Shown in pieces: positions 11,924-58,672 of a DNA stretch of 64,000 nucleotides (its first letter is position 1; every line of letters starts with the position of its first letter). This DNA is from an uncultured Acidimicrobiia bacterium (GTDB lineage: Bacteria; Actinomycetota; Acidimicrobiia; Spongiisociales; ZC4RG35), in contig CAVUUV010000010.1 in assembly GCA_963744905.1 (NCBI GenBank), forward strand, positions 31,916-95,915, in the 5' to 3' direction. The translations under genes were made by a program, and so were the position numbers. A model generated the notes under the pieces. The model saw only the letters and a list, made by a program, of their open reading frames with translations. It had not been told where the DNA came from and did not search any database.

Positions 11924-12607
11924 ATGCCCGCACCCAATCGCAAACGGCTCATCGCCTTCGTGGTGGCTCTGGCGGTCTTGATCGCCACACCGCTGACGGT
12001 GGTAGCGGCCGCAGGGTTCACCGACGTGTCAGACTCCAACGTCTTCACGGCGGACATCCAATGGCTGTCCGACGCCGGTGTAACCAAGGGCTGTAACCCG
12101 CCCGCCAACACCGAATTCTGCCCGAGCGACAACGTGACGCGCGAGCAGATGGCGGCGTTCATGCACCGTTTCGCCGAGTACATGGGCGCAGCAGACGGCA
12201 CGCCGGCCCAGGCCGACAACGCCTCAACTGTCAACGGTGTCTCGGTGGAGCACTTCTTCCACCAGGCAGCGCCCAACACGACCGACGAGGTCATCGGGAC
12301 CTATGGTCCCGTCACCCTCAAGGCAAGCTGCGACGGGAGCGGCGTTCCCACCCTTCGAGCCAGCTGGGACGAGACTGTGAATCGGATGACCTTCAACGGT
12401 TCCGGCGCCGCCCTCACAGGCGACGCAACAGTCAACGCCAACCAAACGATCAGCATCGGGAGTGGCACCAACGGAACAGTTGGTACGACCGATGCGGTTG
12501 GATATGACTCCCACACCCAAACCCAGATCCAGTTCTTCTTGCGAGACGCTCCGGCTCTGGGCGACAACATGTGCTTCTTCTCGGGTTACGTGACAGTCGG
12601 CGGATGA
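11924..12607 (+). CDS. Secreted SLH-domain protein 1
   Basis: Signal peptide; FTDV...GVTKGCNPPANTEFCPSDNVTREQMAAFMHR; AGGAGG RBS. Confidence 0.85.
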   Translation: MPAPNRKRLIAFVVALAVLIATPLTVVAAAGFTDVSDSNVFTADIQWLSDAGVTKGCNPPANTEFCPSDNVTREQMAAFMHRFAEYMGAADGTPAQADNASTVNGVSVEHFFHQAAPNTTDEVIGTYGPVTLKASCDGSGVPTLRASWDETVNRMTFNGSGAALTGDATVNANQTISIGSGTNGTVGTTDAVGYDSHTQTQIQFFLRDAPALGDNMCFFSGYVTVGG

Positions 12608-12918: not shown

Positions 12919-13791
12919 ATGCCCGCACCTCATCTCAAACGACGCTTGATCGCCTTCGTGGCGGCCCTGGCCATGCTGATCGTCACACCACTGGCGGTGG
13001 TGGCTTCGGACGTCTTCACCGACGTCCCCAGTACGAACACCTTCCACGACGACATCACGTGGCTGGCCAACGCCGGCGTTACGAAGGGCTGTAATCCGCC
13101 AGCCAACACCCTGTACTGCCCGTCAGACAACGTGACCCGTGAGCAGATGGCGGCCTTCATGCACCGCCTTGCCGTCAACAAGGTGGTGGATGCAGCCACC
13201 GCTCAGGAAGCAGACCACGCAGCGAGTGCGGACAGCGCAACTGACTCCAACAAGCTCGGCGGTGAAGGCCCGAGCGCATACTTGACTTATGTCAATGCCG
13301 ACGCGTGCTCATTTAGCGAGTGCACCGATTCCGCTGCGTTCGCAATAGCTTCGCAGGCGTCTGTGACCGTCAACCTGCGGGCCAGCGGCGTACTTGAAAT
13401 CGCAAGCAGCTTCACTGCATTCGGTAGTGGTGGTGGGACCAATGTCGTCCAGATGTGGGCCGCCATCGACCAGACACAGAATGGGGGCTGCGGATCATGG
13501 TTCTTTGCTCCCGGCCAAGCCGTACCCGGTTCCTTCGCGACCGAGGACAACAACAACGATGACGCCGCCTCGTTGGCGACCACAACAGCCGTAAACATCA
13601 GCGGTGGATCCCACACGATTCATCTTTGCGCAATCGGCGCCGACAATATCGATGCGACTGCTGCGTCGCTCGTGACCCAATGGTCGCAAGGTGGATCGGG
13701 GCTCGCATTGGCCTCGGCCGACTCTACCGCGACCTTCGACGCCGCGACACAAGCACGCTTCGAGGAGGACTTCGCTGGCGCCAACCAGTGA
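12919..13791 (+). CDS. Secreted SLH-domain protein 2
   Basis: Paralogous signal peptide and SLH (GVTKGCNPPANTLYCPSDNVTREQMAAFMHR); unrelated C-terminus. Confidence 0.85.
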   Translation: MPAPHLKRRLIAFVAALAMLIVTPLAVVASDVFTDVPSTNTFHDDITWLANAGVTKGCNPPANTLYCPSDNVTREQMAAFMHRLAVNKVVDAATAQEADHAASADSATDSNKLGGEGPSAYLTYVNADACSFSECTDSAAFAIASQASVTVNLRASGVLEIASSFTAFGSGGGTNVVQMWAAIDQTQNGGCGSWFFAPGQAVPGSFATEDNNNDDAASLATTTAVNISGGSHTIHLCAIGADNIDATAASLVTQWSQGGSGLALASADSTATFDAATQARFEEDFAGANQ

Positions 13792-28916: not shown

Positions 28917-28949
28917 GCGGGCCAGACCGGGGCTGGAAAAGGCCTGCCT

Positions 28950-29117
28950 CTAGGAGCCCGTTGAACAATGCATGTCACCCATCTTGACGACCATGCATCA
29001 CCACCCACTGCGTTCTCGGCCCCGCCATTCCGGCACAAGGAGTGGCGAAACCTCGGCCTTGCGGCTGGCGCGCCTGGCCGCCAATCCGAGCAACGGCATT
29101 ATCCAACAGGCTCCTAG
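28950..29117. mobile_element. MITE family 1, copy 1
   Basis: CTAG-flanked 160-bp core; 18-bp imperfect TIR GAGCCYGTTGRAYAATGC; near-identical copies at 54168 and 58505. Confidence 0.85.
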
Positions 29118-31539: not shown

Positions 31540-31613
31540 GCGGGTGTAGTTCAATGGTAGAACACGAGCTTCCCAAGCTCGGGACGCGGGTTCGATTCCC
31601 GTCACCCGCTCCA
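31540..31613 (+). tRNA. tRNA-Gly(CCC)
   Basis: Cloverleaf GCGGGTG...CACCCGC-TCCA; anticodon arm CGAGC-TTCCCAA-GCTCG; GGTTCGATTCC T-loop. Confidence 0.95.
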
Positions 31614-53253: not shown

Positions 53254-53585
53254 CTAAGTACTCCGCGTCGCAATTACGGTCGCATGTTTCGGCGAGTCGG
53301 CGGCGTCGATGGCAAGGACGCAGTCCGCAGGCGCACCCGCAGCGGTGCGTCAAGGACGAGGACACAGCAAGCGGCGTAGCCGGCCGCTGAAACGTCAGCG
53401 TAATTACGGGGCGGGGTACTAACTCCGCGTCGCAATTACGGTCGCATGTTTCGGCGAGTCGGCGGCGTCGATGGCAAGGACGCAGTCCGCAGGCGCACCC
53501 GCAGCGGTGCGTCAAGGACGAGGACACAGCAAGCGGCGTAGCCGGCCGTTGAAACGTCAGCGTAATTACGGGGCGGGGTGCTAAG
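53254..53585. mobile_element. MITE family 2, head-to-tail tandem dimer (162-bp period)
   Basis: Two near-identical units; TIR ACTCCGCGTCGCAATTACG vs ACCCCGCCCCGTAATTACG; CTAA at all junctions. Confidence 0.8.
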
Positions 53586-53669
53586 CCAGAAGGTCCCGGA
53601 CTCGCTCGATCGAGAGGCACCCATCCTCGAATCCCGCCAGGAGTAGAGTTGCCAGGCGTGGAGGCTGCA

Positions 53670-54056
53670 ATGAAGCGACTCCAATGGATGCAGACCGAAC
53701 ACGGCTGGCGCTGCGATGCGTATCAGATCGAGCTCCTTGCCCCCGGCTTCTGGGTACTGAGTCAACACAGCGGTCGCTCCCCGTGGCCCGAGGTAATCGC
53801 CAGCGGGGGTTCGTTGAAAGGCCTGAAGAGGCGGGCGTGGCGCTTAGAGGCCAGACTCCGGGGACGGCGTCGCCTGGTCTCGTACCTGGCGTGGCTGGCG
53901 GCCAGCGTGATTTTGGCCGCGGCGGTGCACGGTATTCAGACCCTGTTCGTCATGGCGATCGTGGTCGTCTTCCTCCTGACCCTGCGCGTGATCGGCTTCT
54001 GGGTTGGCCTGACGACCGGTCGAGGCTGGAACCGCCTGGCCGATACCTATCAGTAG
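53670..54056 (+). CDS. Hypothetical membrane protein
   Basis: GGAGG RBS; two C-terminal TM helices. Confidence 0.6.
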   Translation: MKRLQWMQTEHGWRCDAYQIELLAPGFWVLSQHSGRSPWPEVIASGGSLKGLKRRAWRLEARLRGRRRLVSYLAWLAASVILAAAVHGIQTLFVMAIVVVFLLTLRVIGFWVGLTTGRGWNRLADTYQ

Positions 54057-54167
54057 ACGGAGCCTGCGAAATCAGACGAGGCAGTTCTGCAGGCGGTGAT
54101 AGAAGCGATCTCCACCGCCACTGCTTCCGGACCGAGGCGGCGGACGGGTCCCGGCGCTGGGTCCGAA

Positions 54168-54334
54168 CTAGGAGCCCGTTGAACAATGCATGTCACCCAT
54201 CTCGCGACCATGCATCACCACCCACTGCGTTCTCGGCCCCGCCATTCCGGCACAAGGAGTGGCGAAACCTCGGCCTTGCGGCTGGCGCGCCTGGCCGCCA
54301 ATCCGAGCAACGGCATTATCCAACAGGCTCCTAG
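54168..54334. mobile_element. MITE family 1, copy 2
   Basis: CTAG-flanked; near-identical to 28950-29117. Confidence 0.85.
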
Positions 54335-54386
54335 GTCGCCCGGAGGGTGGCGGGTTGTCAGACCGGTTGCGTAGTCTGTTGGCCAG

Positions 54387-55040
54387 ATGGAACGCATCAC
54401 ATGGGGTCGAATGCAGAACCCGCTCCGTGGCATTCTCCACGGTTCGGCTGCCGTGGTGGCCACCGGAGGCCTGGCCTACCTGGTCACGCGAGCCTGGGGC
54501 CGGATCGCCATCCTCTCGGCCGTTCTCCTCTACGGGCTGGCTCTCGTCACCATGTACACGGTCTCTGCTCTCTACCACTCGGTGCCCTGGACACAACGCT
54601 GGAAAGCCCGAATGCAGCGGGTCGACCATTCGCTTATCTTCCTGGTCGTGGCCGGGACCTTCACCCCCTTCGCCCTGACCGCGCTGGGCGGCATCCGCCA
54701 ACTGGTCGCTCTCACTCTGGTGTGGGCAATCGCGGTGACGGGGATCGTCCTCAAGTTCGCCCTCCCGGACCCCAGGACCTGGCTGTCGGTCACCCTGCAG
54801 ATGGCCATGGGCTGGTCTGCTCTGATCTGGCTGCCCTGGATACTGGCCAGTATGGGATGGGGTGCGGTGATCCTGATCATGGCGGGCGGCCTGTGCTACA
54901 CGATCGGGACCATCGTCTACGCCACCAAACGGCCCCGGCTCTTTCCCAGGATCTTCAGCTACCACGAGCTGTTCCACATCCTGGTCATCGCCGGATCGAG
55001 CCTTCATTTCTGGGCCATCGCCCGATACGTGATCGTCTAG
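54387..55040 (+). CDS. Hemolysin III/PAQR family membrane protein
   Basis: SALYH, RVDHSLIF..AGTFTP, YHELFHILV. Confidence 0.9.
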   Translation: MERITWGRMQNPLRGILHGSAAVVATGGLAYLVTRAWGRIAILSAVLLYGLALVTMYTVSALYHSVPWTQRWKARMQRVDHSLIFLVVAGTFTPFALTALGGIRQLVALTLVWAIAVTGIVLKFALPDPRTWLSVTLQMAMGWSALIWLPWILASMGWGAVILIMAGGLCYTIGTIVYATKRPRLFPRIFSYHELFHILVIAGSSLHFWAIARYVIV

Positions 55041-55082
55041 GATTCCCACGTCGTCGAATCCGGTTCGAATAGCCTCCGCCCG

Positions 55083-55938
55083 GTGCGAGAAGGAAGGGCG
55101 GCGACGTTGGTGGTGGCGGCCGCCGTCCTGTGGGGAACCACGGGCACCGCCCAGGCCCTCGGTCAGGCGGAGAGCTCTCCGCTCAGCGTCGGGGCGCTGC
55201 GGATGGCGATCGGGGCCGCCGGGTTGCTGGCCGTCTCGTGGCATCGGCTCAGCCGTCCGCCCCCGGGATGGTTGGTGCTCTCCGCCGTCTGTATGGCGGG
55301 CTACCAGGTGTGCTTCTTCTCGAGCGTGGCCCGGATCGGTGTGGCCCTGGGCACCGTAGTGGCGCTGGGTAGCGCCCCCGTCATGGCCGGCGCTGTTGGG
55401 CCGGGTTATCCGCCGGGAGGTACTGGGCCTGCGCTGGCTCCTGGCCACGGCTTCGGCGGTGATCGGAGTGGCCCTGATCGCCGCCGCCCCCAGCGATGGT
55501 GACCCTCTCGGGCTGACCCTGGCCCTGGGCGCCGGGTTGGCCTATGCGGTCTATGCCCTCAGCTCGAAGTACCTGGTGGAGAGACTCCACCCCACCGCCG
55601 CCATGGCCCTGACATTTGCCGGCGCGGCCGTGTTGCTCGCACCCCTGCTGGCGGGCGCCGACCTGGACTGGCTGTCCCGAGTTCGGGGCGTGGCTGCGGC
55701 CGTCTGGCTGGGTCTGGGCGCCACCACCCTGGCATACATCGCTTTCGCCCGCGGCCTCCAGGGGACCCGGGTGGGCAACGCCGCCACCCTCACCCTGGCC
55801 GAGCCCGCCACGGCCGCTGTGCTCGGTTTCGCCGTGCTGGGCGAGCGGCCTGGATGGGAGGGATGGCTGGGAGTGACGCTGGTGATGGGAGCGGTGTGGA
55901 TACTGGCCAGGTGGCGGACGGCGAGCGTCAGCCCCTGA
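55083..55938 (+). CDS. EamA/DMT transporter (frameshift near 55395)
   Basis: LWGTTGTAQA and GSAPV in frame 1; TLAEP and LGER in the +1 frame. Confidence 0.8.
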
Positions 55939-57376
55939 CCAGCCACGAGGTCTCGGCGCACAGGGCCTCGATCCCTTCGATGGAGGCGGGAACGTGGCTG
56001 CTCAGGTTTTCGTGGCCGTCCTCGGTGATGAGTAGGTCGTCTTCGATACGGATGCCCAGCCCCAGGAACTCCTCGGGCACATTCCATTCGACCTGTTCTG
56101 CCTGCTCGAGGGTCTCGGTCTGGCGCTTGCGGGCCGCCTCTCCTTCCAGCACCCGCTCCAGGGTCCACTGGTCCTGGTCGTACTCGAGCAGGGGAAACGA
56201 CCTGGCGGGACGGGAAGCGTCGACGTAGAGACCGGGTTCGACCGTGAAGGCCATGCCCGGTTCCAGCTTGCGGCTCGAGCCACCCAGGCGGTAGGCGCCC
56301 CGGTCGTGAACGTCGAGTCCCAGCCAGTGGCTGGTGCCGTGGAAGAAGAACTGGCGGTAGTGATGCATGGCCAATGAGTCCTCCACCCCCCGGGGCAGGA
56401 ACCCCAGTTCGGAAAGGCCCTCGGTCAGGATCCTGGTGGCGGCGTGGTGGACCGCCCCGATCGTCGACGCCGGACGGGCCGCCTCGAACCCGGCTTGCTG
56501 GGCGGCCAGCACCACCTCATACAGGGCGCGCTGGGGGGCGGTGAACTCTCCCGAGGCCGGGAAGGTGCGGGTGATGTCGGATGAGTAATGGTCGATCTCG
56601 GCCGCAGCGTCGATCAGCATCAGGTCCCCCTCCTCGATCCGTCGATCGTTCTCCACATAGTGGAGGATGCAGTTGTTGGGGCCCGAGGCCACGATCGAGG
56701 GATAACCGTTGCGGGGCGATCCTCCCTCACGCCACACGTACTCCATGGCCGCCTGCACCTGATACTCGTACAGGTCGGGACGGGCGAACCGCATCGCTTC
56801 CCGGTGACCCTCGGCCGAGAGCAGACAGGCCGCCCGCAACGACTCGATCTCCGTTTCGGACTTGACCAGACGTAACTCCCCCAGCGCCACCGACACGTCC
56901 TTGACCGTGTCGGGGGCCGCCTGGCCGGAGCGGTCCCGATAGGCCCGGGCCCGGGCCAGCAGCCCGGTCATGCGCGAATCGTGGCCGGCGTCACCCATTC
57001 GATACCACAGCACCGACCGGCCCAGCATGAGGCGAGTCAACACCTCGTCCAGCTCGGAGATCTCATAGGCGGCGTCGGCCTCGTGCTGGGCGCGGGCCCC
57101 TTCCACTCCGGCCCGGTAACCGTTCCATGCCTCCATCTCGGGATCACGGGGACGTACGAACAGGGTGTAATCGCCGTCGGGATGCCCGGGGGCGATCACG
57201 CACACCGCGTCCGGTTCCTCGAACCCGGTCAGGTAGACGAAGTTGGAGTCCTGGCGGAAGCGGTGGTTGACGTCATCGTTGCGAATGGTCTCGGCGGCGG
57301 CGGGTATCACGGCAATACCCTCGGTGCCGACGATCTCGGCCAGGCGGGAACGGTGGGTTTGGAATCTGTCGACCAT
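55928..57376 (-). CDS. pepP: Xaa-Pro aminopeptidase
   Basis: FRQDSNF.YLTG, SDITRT, HWLGLDVHD, TVEPG, GIRIEDD. Confidence 0.92.
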   Translation of the reverse strand: MVDRFQTHRSRLAEIVGTEGIAVIPAAAETIRNDDVNHRFRQDSNFVYLTGFEEPDAVCVIAPGHPDGDYTLFVRPRDPEMEAWNGYRAGVEGARAQHEADAAYEISELDEVLTRLMLGRSVLWYRMGDAGHDSRMTGLLARARAYRDRSGQAAPDTVKDVSVALGELRLVKSETEIESLRAACLLSAEGHREAMRFARPDLYEYQVQAAMEYVWREGGSPRNGYPSIVASGPNNCILHYVENDRRIEEGDLMLIDAAAEIDHYSSDITRTFPASGEFTAPQRALYEVVLAAQQAGFEAARPASTIGAVHHAATRILTEGLSELGFLPRGVEDSLAMHHYRQFFFHGTSHWLGLDVHDRGAYRLGGSSRKLEPGMAFTVEPGLYVDASRPARSFPLLEYDQDQWTLERVLEGEAARKRQTETLEQAEQVEWNVPEEFLGLGIRIEDDLLITEDGHENLSSHVPASIEGIEALCAETSWLVRG

Positions 57377-57388
57377 ATGCGCCTCAAG

Positions 57389-58297
57389 TTACCCGGGTAC
57401 CCACAGGTCTACTACCAGAGGGAAGTGGTCCGATCCCAGGGCGGGCCCGAGACGGCGATCGGCAACGGCCAGGCCGTCGGAGTAGAGAAGGTGGTCGATG
57501 GGCACCCGGAGGGCGAAGAACCAGGTGGTGGGGAAGCTGGCCTCGATTCCGAAACCGGCCTGTGAGTTGTGGAGCCCGGTCGACGCAACCAGGCGACGGA
57601 ATGGGTAGGACCAGGGAGTGGCATTGAAATCACCGGTGACGACGTGTGGCCCCTCCTGGCGCCCGGCCCATTCTGCCGCAAACGCCAGTTGAGCGTTACG
57701 GAGCGCGGCCCGCTCGGCATTGGTGGGCGAGAGGGCATGAACACCGAGGATGGCCACTTCGTCGTGGATCACCTCGACCGCCCGGGCCCCGCCGGTCGTG
57801 AATCCGAAGCTGGTCACCTTGTCCCCGGGGCGCGTCAGGACCAACGTGCCGAAGATCAACTCCTGGCTGCGGGATTTGGTGATCTCATATCCCAGGTCGG
57901 CACTCTCGATCGCCACCTCCCAGGGCAGGGACGCCTCGTGCAGGAAGACGACGTCTGGGTTCTCCTGGCGGATGAAGGAGATGAGGGCGGCGAACTCCTC
58001 GTTGGAGTCGTACAGGTTGAACGACATGACCCGAATCGGCTCCTCGGGCGGGATCGTGACTCCGTGCCCGATGAAGAGGGGCACGATCACGACCAGGTTC
58101 ACCACCGCCCCGAGGGCGGCCACCAGCGCCGTCTTCCGCCATGCGCGCACGATCAGCAGCGCCGCCAGGGCGATCAGGGCGACCGCATACTGGACCCTGA
58201 AGTTGGCCGCCACGTCGAGCACCCAGGACCATTTCCCGAAGAAGGCGGCCACGGTGACCACGGCCAGCGCTACCGCGGGTACGGCCACGACGATCAT
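57389..58297 (-). CDS. Endonuclease/exonuclease/phosphatase family membrane protein
   Basis: VMSFN, GDFNATPWS, IDH, GSDH; N-terminal TMs. Confidence 0.85.
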   Translation of the reverse strand: MIVVAVPAVALAVVTVAAFFGKWSWVLDVAANFRVQYAVALIALAALLIVRAWRKTALVAALGAVVNLVVIVPLFIGHGVTIPPEEPIRVMSFNLYDSNEEFAALISFIRQENPDVVFLHEASLPWEVAIESADLGYEITKSRSQELIFGTLVLTRPGDKVTSFGFTTGGARAVEVIHDEVAILGVHALSPTNAERAALRNAQLAFAAEWAGRQEGPHVVTGDFNATPWSYPFRRLVASTGLHNSQAGFGIEASFPTTWFFALRVPIDHLLYSDGLAVADRRLGPALGSDHFPLVVDLWVPG

Positions 58298-58345
58298 GAG
58301 GGGTCAGGGTAGGAGTGGTTGCCCGGGTGTGATTCGAGCCTCCAG

Positions 58346-58504
58346 TGGTGTGTCGCTCAATCAGGGGAACGGTGTCTCCGAGTCATCGGCGTTCTCTGGC
58401 AAGGAGAGGGCGCAGTCGCAGCCGGGGCGCTGCGGCGAGCACTTCGACACAGCCAGGGGCGTCGGGGGCCGGAGAGACCGCGCCATCATTTGGGCGACGC
58501 ACCA
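58346..58504. mobile_element. MITE family 3 (single copy, abuts family 1 copy 3)
   Basis: TIR TGGTGTGTCGCTCAA vs TGGTGCGTCGCCCAA; flanks CCAG/CTAG; 159 bp. Confidence 0.65.
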
Positions 58505-58672
58505 CTAGGAGCCTGTTGGATAATGCCGTTGCTCGGATTGGCGGCCAGGCGCGCCAGCCGCAAGGCCGAGGTTTCGCCACTCCTTGTGCCGGAATGGCGG
58601 GGCCGAGAACGCAGTGGGTGGTGATGTATGGTCGTCAAGATGGGTGACATGCATTGTTCAACGGGCTCCTAG
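58505..58672. mobile_element. MITE family 1, copy 3 (inverted)
   Basis: Reverse complement of 28950-29117; CTAG flanks. Confidence 0.85.

Follow-up and report, generated by a model that had tools for sequence, protein, structure and literature searches.

A strand-specific structured core shared by diverged MITE families of an Acidimicrobiia bacterium

Introduction

MITEs are usually pictured as a pair of ends bound by transposase, the stretch in between being mere filler. The elements described here resemble IS630/Tc1-mariner MITEs in their length of ~160 bp, their TIRs and the TA found on both sides in a CTAG context, and also in having many copies whose presence or absence varies between congeners. 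They differ in that one interior module is found across different TIRs and also in TNA families (F1, and family B of genome G062), and in their strand-specific fold, an orientation that follows replication, and a majority of carriers in which no IS630 transposase is detectable.

ERIC and Correia/NEMIS elements are structured-RNA MITEs akin to bcr1. For the latter, a mobile repeat of the Bacillus cereus group, the published account describes a fold of one strand that is kept by compensatory changes (PMC3184786). Such MITEs share with the present elements a size of ~100–170 bp, mobility and a maintained fold; here, in contrast, purine–purine loops are conserved across TIR classes and across the phylum, and there is a replication bias and no transcription bias.

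A likeness in behaviour only is seen with integron attC sites, which are imperfect palindromes in which one strand folds to the active form and structure is conserved over sequence; their polarity matches that of the present elements. These sites have a tyrosine integrase, R/L boxes (GTTRRRY) and extrahelical bases, whereas the elements in this study have TIRs and duplications typical of DDE transposition. At the ends of IS200/IS605 elements, in their palindromic derivatives and in REP/RAYT systems, mobility is signalled by ssDNA hairpins, with activity linked to ssDNA at the fork, but these systems lack TIRs and target duplication and need a Y1 HUH transposase. To our knowledge, control through hairpin ssDNA has so far been described for HUH transposons and integron cassettes only, and we know of no DDE transposase of the IS630 type that acts on hairpin ssDNA.

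Here we analyse three MITE families, F1, F2 and F3, which occur in a stretch of 64,000 nucleotides from an uncultured Acidimicrobiia bacterium (the whole stretch is referred to as the window).

Results

A sequence-only reading of the window had picked out a motif pair, GCAAGG followed by RACRCAG, at 53312, 58399 and 58560. The pair is real, as GCAAGG-N36-48-RACRCAG has six matches in the window against 0.08 expected, and none of 100 shuffled controls reached six. Matches are located at 53312, 53474, 58399 and 58560 on the plus strand and at 29008–29062 and 54225–54279 on the minus strand; the loci listed in that reading stand, while it had missed the second copy of F1, which forms a tandem dimer, and two more F3 copies in the window. 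The whole genome contains 62 matches to the motif pair, 60 of them inside the three repeat (MITE) families (49 F3-type, 10 F1-type, 1 F2).

F1 is present as a head-to-tail dimer at 53258–53581 on the plus strand (copies 53258–53419 and 53423–53581), with the TIR GTACTCCGCGTCGCAATTACG and with TAA as its flanks at 53255–53257 and 53582–53584. The core of the first copy (53312–53367, plus strand) runs from GCAAGG to GACACAG around a central 8-bp hairpin and scores 84.9 bits with model R1, a model whose training set included this sequence; the second core lies at 53474–53529 on the same strand. F2 occupies 58345–58505 on the plus strand (TIR GTGGTGTGTCGCTCAAT, core 58399–58452, plus), with CA, a decayed TA, on its left and a TA on its right (58506–58507) that is common to F2 and the adjoining F3 element. 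The latter, at 58508–58669 on the plus strand, has the TIR GGAGCCTGTTGGATAATGC and TA at 58506–58507 and 58670–58671, and its core (58560–58614, plus) retains the outer loop GC-AA-G / C-GCA-G plus the tandem GA/GA beside the stem, with a different inner hairpin in place of the canonical one. Further F3 copies with flanking TA are found on the minus strand at 28948–29116 (core 29008–29062) and 54166–54333 (core 54225–54279), the folding strand of the 54166–54333 copy being, in that orientation, the G-rich strand.

The three families had been read as unrelated and without overall similarity, which did not hold up. F1 and F2 align along their full length (global alignment, 108 of 171 positions identical, z 9.3), and F3, which resembles neither F1 nor F2 in direct comparison (z 0.8, −0.7), is tied in through element L083 of genome G019, which is homologous to F3 in both arms (z 11.2) and has the canonical core in common with F1 (z 7.4). 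F1, F2 and F3 are diverged members of one superfamily of ~160–165-bp MITEs, which have TIRs, move by cut and paste and duplicate TA or TNA at the target. Element length is 161–165 bp, TIRs are present in all full copies (9 F1, 4 F2, 52 F3), and the differences between families are confined to the terminal ~22–25 nt. The insertion at CTA(G/A) noted earlier was recovered in more specific form: within C-TA-G, F2 and F3 are bordered by TA on each side (C-TA ... TA-G is read at most of the 52 F3 copies), and the F1 site is C-TNA-G, where the 3-bp duplication is exact at four of seven loci (TAA/TAA twice, TTA/TTA twice) and off by one transition at the other three.

The elements are mobile, on the basis of filled and empty sites in G000 and G001. 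A site termed D is empty (CTAG) in G000 and filled in G001 with TA on both sides, and the F1 dimer, F3 and the F2 and F3 pair of the window are missing at the orthologous G001 sites. Across several genomes the same core recurs inside elements with six or more types of TIR and with two types of duplication. Two families in G062 with different ends and duplications, TA versus TNA (TGA/TGA and TAA/TAA in family B, the TNA type), agree at 51 of 55 core positions, and at just 25/54 and 32/57 positions of the arms. Mini-F2 derivatives of ~79 bp, from which the central ~85 nt of F2 (about 58376–58464) and hence the core are absent, exist in several copies, and joints skipping 84–86 nt were seen in three sequencing runs (X1–X3). 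The core is therefore dispensable for some transposition, or else these minis recur by deletion.

In the element's own genome all 64 matches to R1 at E ≤ 7.2e-5 fall in F1, F2 or F3, and there is therefore no single-copy source gene. Of 151 genomes from the class, 20 contain the core according to this model, as do 11 of 151 from the phylum. A scan of a contig collection gave 27 stretches, of which ~12 are true elements; Acidimicrobiia MAGs account for most of these and a Solirubrobacteraceae MAG for one. This figure is an undercount with most copies missed, since the scan used a first gap of 8–14 and the main class has 7; the remaining stretches were chance matches inside genes. Plasmid and phage collections held no match to the F1 core region. 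The sequence-only reading gave no named family for the module, and this agrees with the Rfam scans: Rfam 15 at gathering score returned only tRNA for the whole window, and the top hits in E-value scans of the two element regions reached 19.3 and 14.4 bits, well short of the gathering scores. Searches of the literature likewise found no description of these elements.

The predicted fold of each element is a rod of ~160 nt that has a hairpin at its centre and an outer internal loop common to all, so that the rod with one and the same asymmetric loop, as first proposed, is seen in each family. With RNA parameters, fold energies are −89.6, −104.1 and −100.6 kcal/mol for the GCAAGG strand versus −62.6, −70.5 and −62.1 kcal/mol for the other, with z-scores of −7 to −8.5 against −1.4 to −4.2 on the opposite strand; the GCAAGG strand is the more stable in 35 of 35 elements with RNA parameters and again in 35 of 35 with DNA parameters. 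G-T pairs do fall on the GCAAGG strand as had been noted, which across these 35 elements carries 289 G-T/U pairs versus 15 A-C 1×1 mismatches.

Within the rod lies a module of ~55 nt with the layout P1 - [AA / RCA] - G:C - [GA/GA] - C:G - ... - C:G - [GAA/GA] - 8-bp hairpin, whose conserved purine–purine internal loops are the most constrained part of the rod; the canonical core also has four RGGAC repeats. Covariation was assessed on an alignment of 38 matches fitted to the model, 31 of them outside its training set. In this alignment 92.9% of cells pair and double changes occur at 13 of 15 pairs. The suggested check for covariation returned compensatory changes, with 73 double-change cells versus 14.4 in shuffles (0 of 500 as high). 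Non-Watson–Crick GA/GA segments are replaced by Watson–Crick helices in other families, and across the classes of the phylum the loops stay in place and in register even as compensatory substitutions alter the helices. In 26 of 37 rows the central hairpin has a conserved G-U as its second pair, which is a typical RNA feature and counts against a reading as ssDNA. The fold is strand-specific and its helices covary, and the earlier proposal of selection on a single-stranded structure is borne out by the one-sided G-T/U pairs, the compensatory helix changes and the occurrence of the same core amid differing TIRs.

In the active F3 family (51/52 copies) variability is 0.64% in the core, 0.8–0.9% in the TIRs and 1.3–2.1% in the arms, so the constraint on this core equals that on the TIRs. 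The G062 families vary alike in all parts (~2–7% by region), and this even decay of copies indicates that per-locus purifying selection is absent.

Several identities for the module were considered and rejected. In a kink-turn, tandem G.A/A.G pairs come after a 3-nt bulge and the opposite strand has GA immediately beside the C-stem. When the module was compared by eye with this consensus, the 5' strand fits (GGC-AAG-GA), but the 3' strand has RCA and not GA beside P1 in nearly all rows. A 6S-like RNA has a different layout and Rfam gave no match; a short ORF downstream of the SD-like purine runs lacks conservation from family to family; and for an iteron-plus-hairpin rolling-circle origin, the loop is unconserved and an HUH gene is absent. 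Promoter-like and terminator-like sites were not found within the elements.

In 50 of the 65 copies in G000 the GCAAGG strand is the locally C-rich one (p 1.6e-5), a preference shared by the families (F1 9/9, F2 4/4, F3 37/52). The same holds for 21 of 21 copies in G062, where the strand switches at skew switches and dnaA is located at the negative-to-positive one; the preferred orientation was also seen in 10/12 copies in G033 and in 4/7 in G040. When F3 copies were split by age, 6 of the 12 youngest and 31 of the 40 older ones had the preferred orientation (small numbers), and preferred versus opposite counts were 50 vs 15 for full copies and 8 vs 9 for partial or deleted ones (Fisher 0.033). 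The orientation bias is replication-linked and grows with copy age, deleted copies are over-represented among those in the opposite orientation, and the folded strand appears to matter to these mobile elements. An asymmetric hairpin alone is sufficient for such a bias, which leaves the retention of the fold unexplained. Given the excess of C>T on the leading strand, a mutation bias tied to replication would yield A-C rather than G-T on the GCAAGG strand of copies in the preferred orientation, and was rejected as the origin of the G-T pairs. Carriers also have homologues of NucS, an enzyme whose preference is for G/T. No transcription bias was detected among F3 copies in co-directional contexts (12 sense vs 15 antisense), and the preferred orientation places the folding strand antisense to the genes of the leading strand (56% of genes). 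F3 lies between convergent genes in 20 cases and divergent genes in five, and many copies abut TAG stop codons. A search of sequencing runs yielded 19 DNA runs and a single RNA run, the latter with 4% of the words.

Candidate mobilisers are few. G000 holds an IS630-family transposase (NF033545, 261.6 bits) on an IS in two copies, whose ends are only partly F3-like with TAG...CCTGT in common, and in the class sample an IS630 transposase above the curated cut-off was present in three of 20 core-positive genomes. Duplication length is linked to IS group, 3-bp TNA corresponding to the IS5 / PIF-Harbinger type. PF13358 (DDE_3, over the cut-off), PF13586, PF13359 and PF01797 gave zero hits in G062, G033, G029 and G156, and PF13586 and PF13359 were found in 0/5 carrier genomes. 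PF01609 was found solely in an IS with ends unlike those of the elements, and the G062 IS carrying it was rejected as mobiliser since its ends are unrelated. An identity of the IS200/IS605 or REP/RAYT type was rejected as well, because TIRs and duplications are present and Y1_Tnp (PF01797) occurs in 0/5 carriers. The core-less mini-F2 copies, the 4/7 in G040 and the finding of a mobiliser gene in few carriers count against an ssDNA signal.

Discussion

In these MITEs the filler is the most conserved part and is common to families that differ in their ends and in the lengths of their duplications, and it folds on one strand only and links what becomes of a copy to replication direction. The reading that we favour, although we would place it a little below even, is that the module is a single-strand hairpin signal needed for propagation, likeliest as ssDNA at replication forks. 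Only the GCAAGG strand has retained the capacity to form the long rod. The module would be exposed as ssDNA at the fork, the conserved loops may form a recognition platform for the mobilising transposase or for a hairpin-binding host factor, and the copies that survive would increasingly be those whose folding strand lies on the leading-strand template. We infer that ssDNA rather than RNA is the relevant molecule, that the loops bind protein and that the signal acts in transposition. Among the functions offered as examples by the sequence-only reading, a mobility signal in ssDNA fits better, because orientation tracks replication and not transcription and the F3 core is constrained like the TIRs, and a processing RNA fits less well. 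If the module is an ssDNA signal for mobility or persistence, TIR elements would join HUH transposons and integrons in having hairpin control coupled to replication; should it be an RNA, Actinomycetota have a widespread structured RNA that is so far undescribed. A covariance model and a clear strand are supplied under either reading. A wider version of the idea, which is speculative and on balance improbable, is that this is a portable module of ~55 nt passed between, or retained by, TA and TNA MITE families with different transposases across Actinomycetota, which would couple DDE transposition or excision to the fork as a strand-specific ssDNA signal.

It is also conceivable, if rather unlikely, that the module works as RNA, with read-through or own transcripts of the GCAAGG strand folding and the purine-rich loops binding a host protein or directing processing, so that such families were better tolerated and spread; it might stabilise 3' ends, serve as a substrate of the RNase III type or act as a sponge for protein. 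G-U is near-neutral in RNA and a one-sided count such as 289 versus 15 is the classic RNA signature, to which the strand difference in fold z-scores and the conserved G-U within the central hairpin can be added. Copies are probably co-transcribed, because many abut TAG stops and lie between convergent genes, and the bcr1 account offers a precedent of a MITE that is transcribed with its fold kept by compensatory changes (PMC3184786). An RNA role is, however, harder to reconcile with the lack of an orientation preference relative to flanking genes, with a folding strand that in the preferred orientation is antisense to leading-strand genes, with the lack of promoter-like or terminator-like sites inside the elements and of a match in Rfam, and with the even decay of G062 copies without per-locus purifying selection.

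Two further explanations were considered. In Correia elements, an IHF site is said to bend the element and bring its ends together. By analogy, the core could be bound as duplex DNA by an architectural or regulatory protein, the site being an 8-N4-6-8 inverted repeat with GGAC repeats on its flanks at which a mid-element bend joins the ends. Its central position, a hairpin palindrome of operator-like size and the four RGGAC repeats all suit such a site, as do MITEs with central host-factor sites described in reviews (PMC2229807). We consider this very doubtful, since a duplex site gives no reason for all arm differences being G-T rather than A-C on one strand, for helix covariation amid sequence change or for GA/GA being replaceable by any Watson–Crick helix, and it does not predict the replication-linked orientation bias. 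That bias could instead be a mere side effect of palindrome instability in elements whose interior has no function of its own, having come down from a single ancestral MITE, with recent spread and recombination between families maintaining the similarity. F1, F2 and their relatives are indeed homologous, the near-identical core of the two G062 families could reflect recent exchange, decay after insertion is even in G062 and core-less minis still occur in several copies. A functionless interior nevertheless has little probability in our judgement: the loops and register are kept across the classes of the phylum despite compensatory helix change, 289 versus 15 is not expected without selection and the replication-linked mutation bias has the opposite sign, and the core of the active F3 family is as invariant as its TIRs.

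A structured core in three MITE families

Against an expectation of 0.08, the window contains six copies of the motif pair GCAAGG-N36-48-RACRCAG, a count reached in 0/100 shuffled sequences. Our pattern search confirmed the three positions picked out by the sequence-only reading (53312, 58399 and 58560), and added a second F1 core at 53474 and minus-strand F3 cores at 29008-29062 and 54225-54279. The whole 3.58-Mb source genome (G000) contains 62 matches, 60 of them inside three repeat families, F1, F2 and F3. These are MITEs, present as 9, 4 and 52 full copies respectively, with partial copies in addition. Using a covariance model of the core (R1), 64/64 matches at E <= 7.2e-5 belonged to these families; two of three weaker matches (E 0.02-0.9) were degenerate copies, and this search of the source genome found no single-copy source of the core.

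The canonical core reads TGGC-AA-G-GA-C-GCA-G-GA-C-GAA-[8-bp hairpin, loop 4-6]-GA-G-GA-C-GA-G-GA-C-GCA-GCCA, a layout of purine-purine 2x2 or 3x2 loops between isolated G:C pairs. Conservation is highest in two loops, the outer one (C-AAG-G / RAC-RCA-G) and the one adjoining the hairpin. In some families a 5–8-bp helix of Watson-Crick pairs takes the place of C-GCA-G/C-GA-G, its two strands having changed in a compensatory way (CCGCT/AGCGG, CTGCT/GGCAG, CGCCGACC/GGTCGGCG), and one GA/GA has turned Watson-Crick in F1 and in element L053. These replacements support the pairing register of the core.

The three families had been taken to be unrelated, which proved mistaken. An end-to-end alignment of F1 with F2 gives 108/171 identical positions (z 9.3). 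Compared directly, F3 shows no similarity to F1 or F2 (z 0.8 and -0.7), and is linked through an element of another genome, G019, which is homologous to F3 in both arms (z 11.2) and carries the canonical core common with F1 (z 7.4). Pattern and model searches of other genomes show that F1, F2, F3 and their relatives form one superfamily of ~160–165-nt rods, in which the terminal ~22–25 nt are variable (at least six TIR types) and ~26 nt outward of GCAAGG, on either side, are conserved. Two families in genome G062, with different TIRs and TA versus TNA duplications, have 51/55 core positions in common but only 25/54 and 32/57 arm positions.

Covariation, strand asymmetry and selection

In a motif-selected alignment (47 rows, the invariance of GCAAGG and RACRCAG being by construction), 93.1% of cells pair and 52 show double changes, against 14.5 in shuffles. 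A second alignment of 38 R1 matches, 31 of them outside the training set, was fitted to R1 and hence leans towards the model; here 92.9% of cells pair, with double changes in 13/15 pairs and in 73 cells (14.4 in shuffles, 0/500). Exact motifs were retained in 33/38 (GCAAGG), 36/38 (CAAGG) and 32/38 (RACRCAG) rows, and the spaced pair in 26/38. When the GCAAGG strand is folded, 289 G-T/U pairs form against 15 A-C 1x1 mismatches across 35 elements drawn from several genomes, and this strand is the stabler in 35/35 under RNA parameters and in 35/35 under DNA parameters (mean -49.5 vs -38.8 kcal/mol). Differences between left and right F3 TIRs, read off the copies, are likewise of G-T type. The asymmetry and covariation support the earlier suggestion of a selected single-stranded structure.

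Within each G062 family, TIRs, arms and core are equally variable (~2–7% depending on the region). The source genome's active F3 family has a variability of 0.64% in the core, 0.8–0.9% in TIRs and 1.3–2.1% in arms (51/52 copies, one very divergent copy omitted). Taken together, selection seems to act on the ability to propagate, not on every inserted copy.

Orientation and replication

Of the 65 full copies in the source genome, 50 have their GCAAGG strand on the strand that is locally richer in C (p 1.6e-5; F1 9/9, F2 4/4, F3 37/52); counted as independent loci, the figure is 40/53. Gene strand bias is only 56%. All 21/21 matches listed on two G062 contigs follow the skew, the strand flipping at skew switches, and the preferred orientation is found in 10/12 copies in G033 (8/8 where |skew| > 0.01) and 4/7 in G040. 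As dnaA in G062 (C1:450434-451780) sits at a negative-to-positive skew switch, the leading strand is the G-rich one, which puts the folding strand on the leading-strand template. The source genome's dnaA (C10:121298-122629) is ~25 kb past the window's end, which places the window near the replication origin, on the side with a C-rich plus strand.

We tentatively prefer ssDNA as the active molecule. That it is instead RNA appears somewhat less likely; in the source genome F3 shows no orientation bias relative to flanking genes (12 sense vs 15 antisense, with 20 convergent and 5 divergent). We read the orientation data as elements inserting in random orientation and later being lost in an orientation-dependent way, where the lagging-strand template is able to fold into the stable hairpin. 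Preferred orientation was seen in 6/12 of the youngest F3 copies (0–1 differences from consensus) and 31/40 older ones, and in 50 full copies against 15 in the wrong orientation, versus 8 against 9 for partial or internally deleted copies (Fisher 0.033). Three of four core-less ~79-bp F2 derivatives are in the 'wrong' orientation. Such mini forms are missing ~85 nt from the middle of the element, with short CGAG repeats bounding the gap, and the same skips of 84–86 nt occur in contigs from three sequencing runs.

NucS/EndoMS cuts G/T, G/G and T/T mismatches, so the G-T-rich hairpin, unlike its A-C-rich complement, could be imagined as a NucS substrate, an idea only. Homologues occur in three carriers (G000:C3:957167-957517, G062:C1:478999-479361 and G033:C10:99580-99942).

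Distribution and relation to known elements

R1 matched 20/151 genomes of a class sample (at least 11 families) and 11/151 of a phylum sample, where matches outside the class retained GCAAGG and AAC/GAC-GCN-G. Unpublished genomes are counted in the pattern-search tally (G027, G038) and the phylum tally (G178, G222, G289); none of their sequences is drawn on in this account. Named records with the canonical core were mainly Acidimicrobiia MAGs plus one Solirubrobacteraceae MAG, an incomplete list as a wrongly set gap weakened the scan. Three equal-scoring matches spaced 108–127 nt apart (G059:C3:751264-751574) suggest core-like units repeated in tandem, too tightly for full elements.

An Rfam search gave no match, in keeping with the earlier statement that no named family was known, nor did plasmid and phage collections searched with the F1 core region, and the literature searched held no description of such elements. 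MITEs with a conserved fold are a known kind, bcr1 being an example (PMC3184786). As far as our searches go, what is new is a purine-loop module common to different TIR and duplication classes, its phylum-wide spread and the replication-linked orientation.

Insertion sites and transposases

F2 and F3 copies in the source genome are flanked by C-TA ... TA-G and F1 by C-TNA ... TNA-G, with identical triplets at 4/7 loci. In a congener (G001), the window's F1 dimer, F3 copy and F2+F3 pair are all missing from the orthologous region; conversely, an F2-like element in that region lies at a CTAG, with TA on either side, that is empty in the source genome.

The source genome carries two IS630-family copies (NF033545, 261.6 bits vs cut-off 100) at C2:88729-92121 and C7:117118-120510, whose ends have TAG...CCTGT in common with F3. 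An F3 MITE adjoins one end of each via a shared CTAG, in opposite orientations. Across the class sample, IS630 exceeded the cut-off in 12/151 genomes, yet in only 3 of the 20 core-carrying ones, many of the genomes searched being draft MAGs in which IS copies are possibly unassembled. PF13358, PF13586, PF13359 and PF01797 were not found in G062, G033, G029 and G156. A PF01609 IS of G062 was rejected as the mobiliser, its ends being unrelated.

Element ends regenerate CTAG, so insertions accumulate side by side; F2-F3, F3-F3 and F1-F1 pairs also adjoin. At two loci (window 53258-53581 and G000:C2:332642-332965), F1 copies are joined head to tail through an identical unusual junction in which the second copy is without its first three bases: either the dimer moved whole or it arose identically twice. 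Many F3 copies begin or finish exactly at the TAG stop codon of an adjacent gene, the CTAG target often lying at gene ends in this 66% GC genome.

The window also holds a 242-nt direct repeat unrelated to the MITEs (11944-12185 and 12942-13183, 74% identity, 998 nt apart) and a tRNA gene at 31540-31610 (Rfam RF00005, 73 bits).
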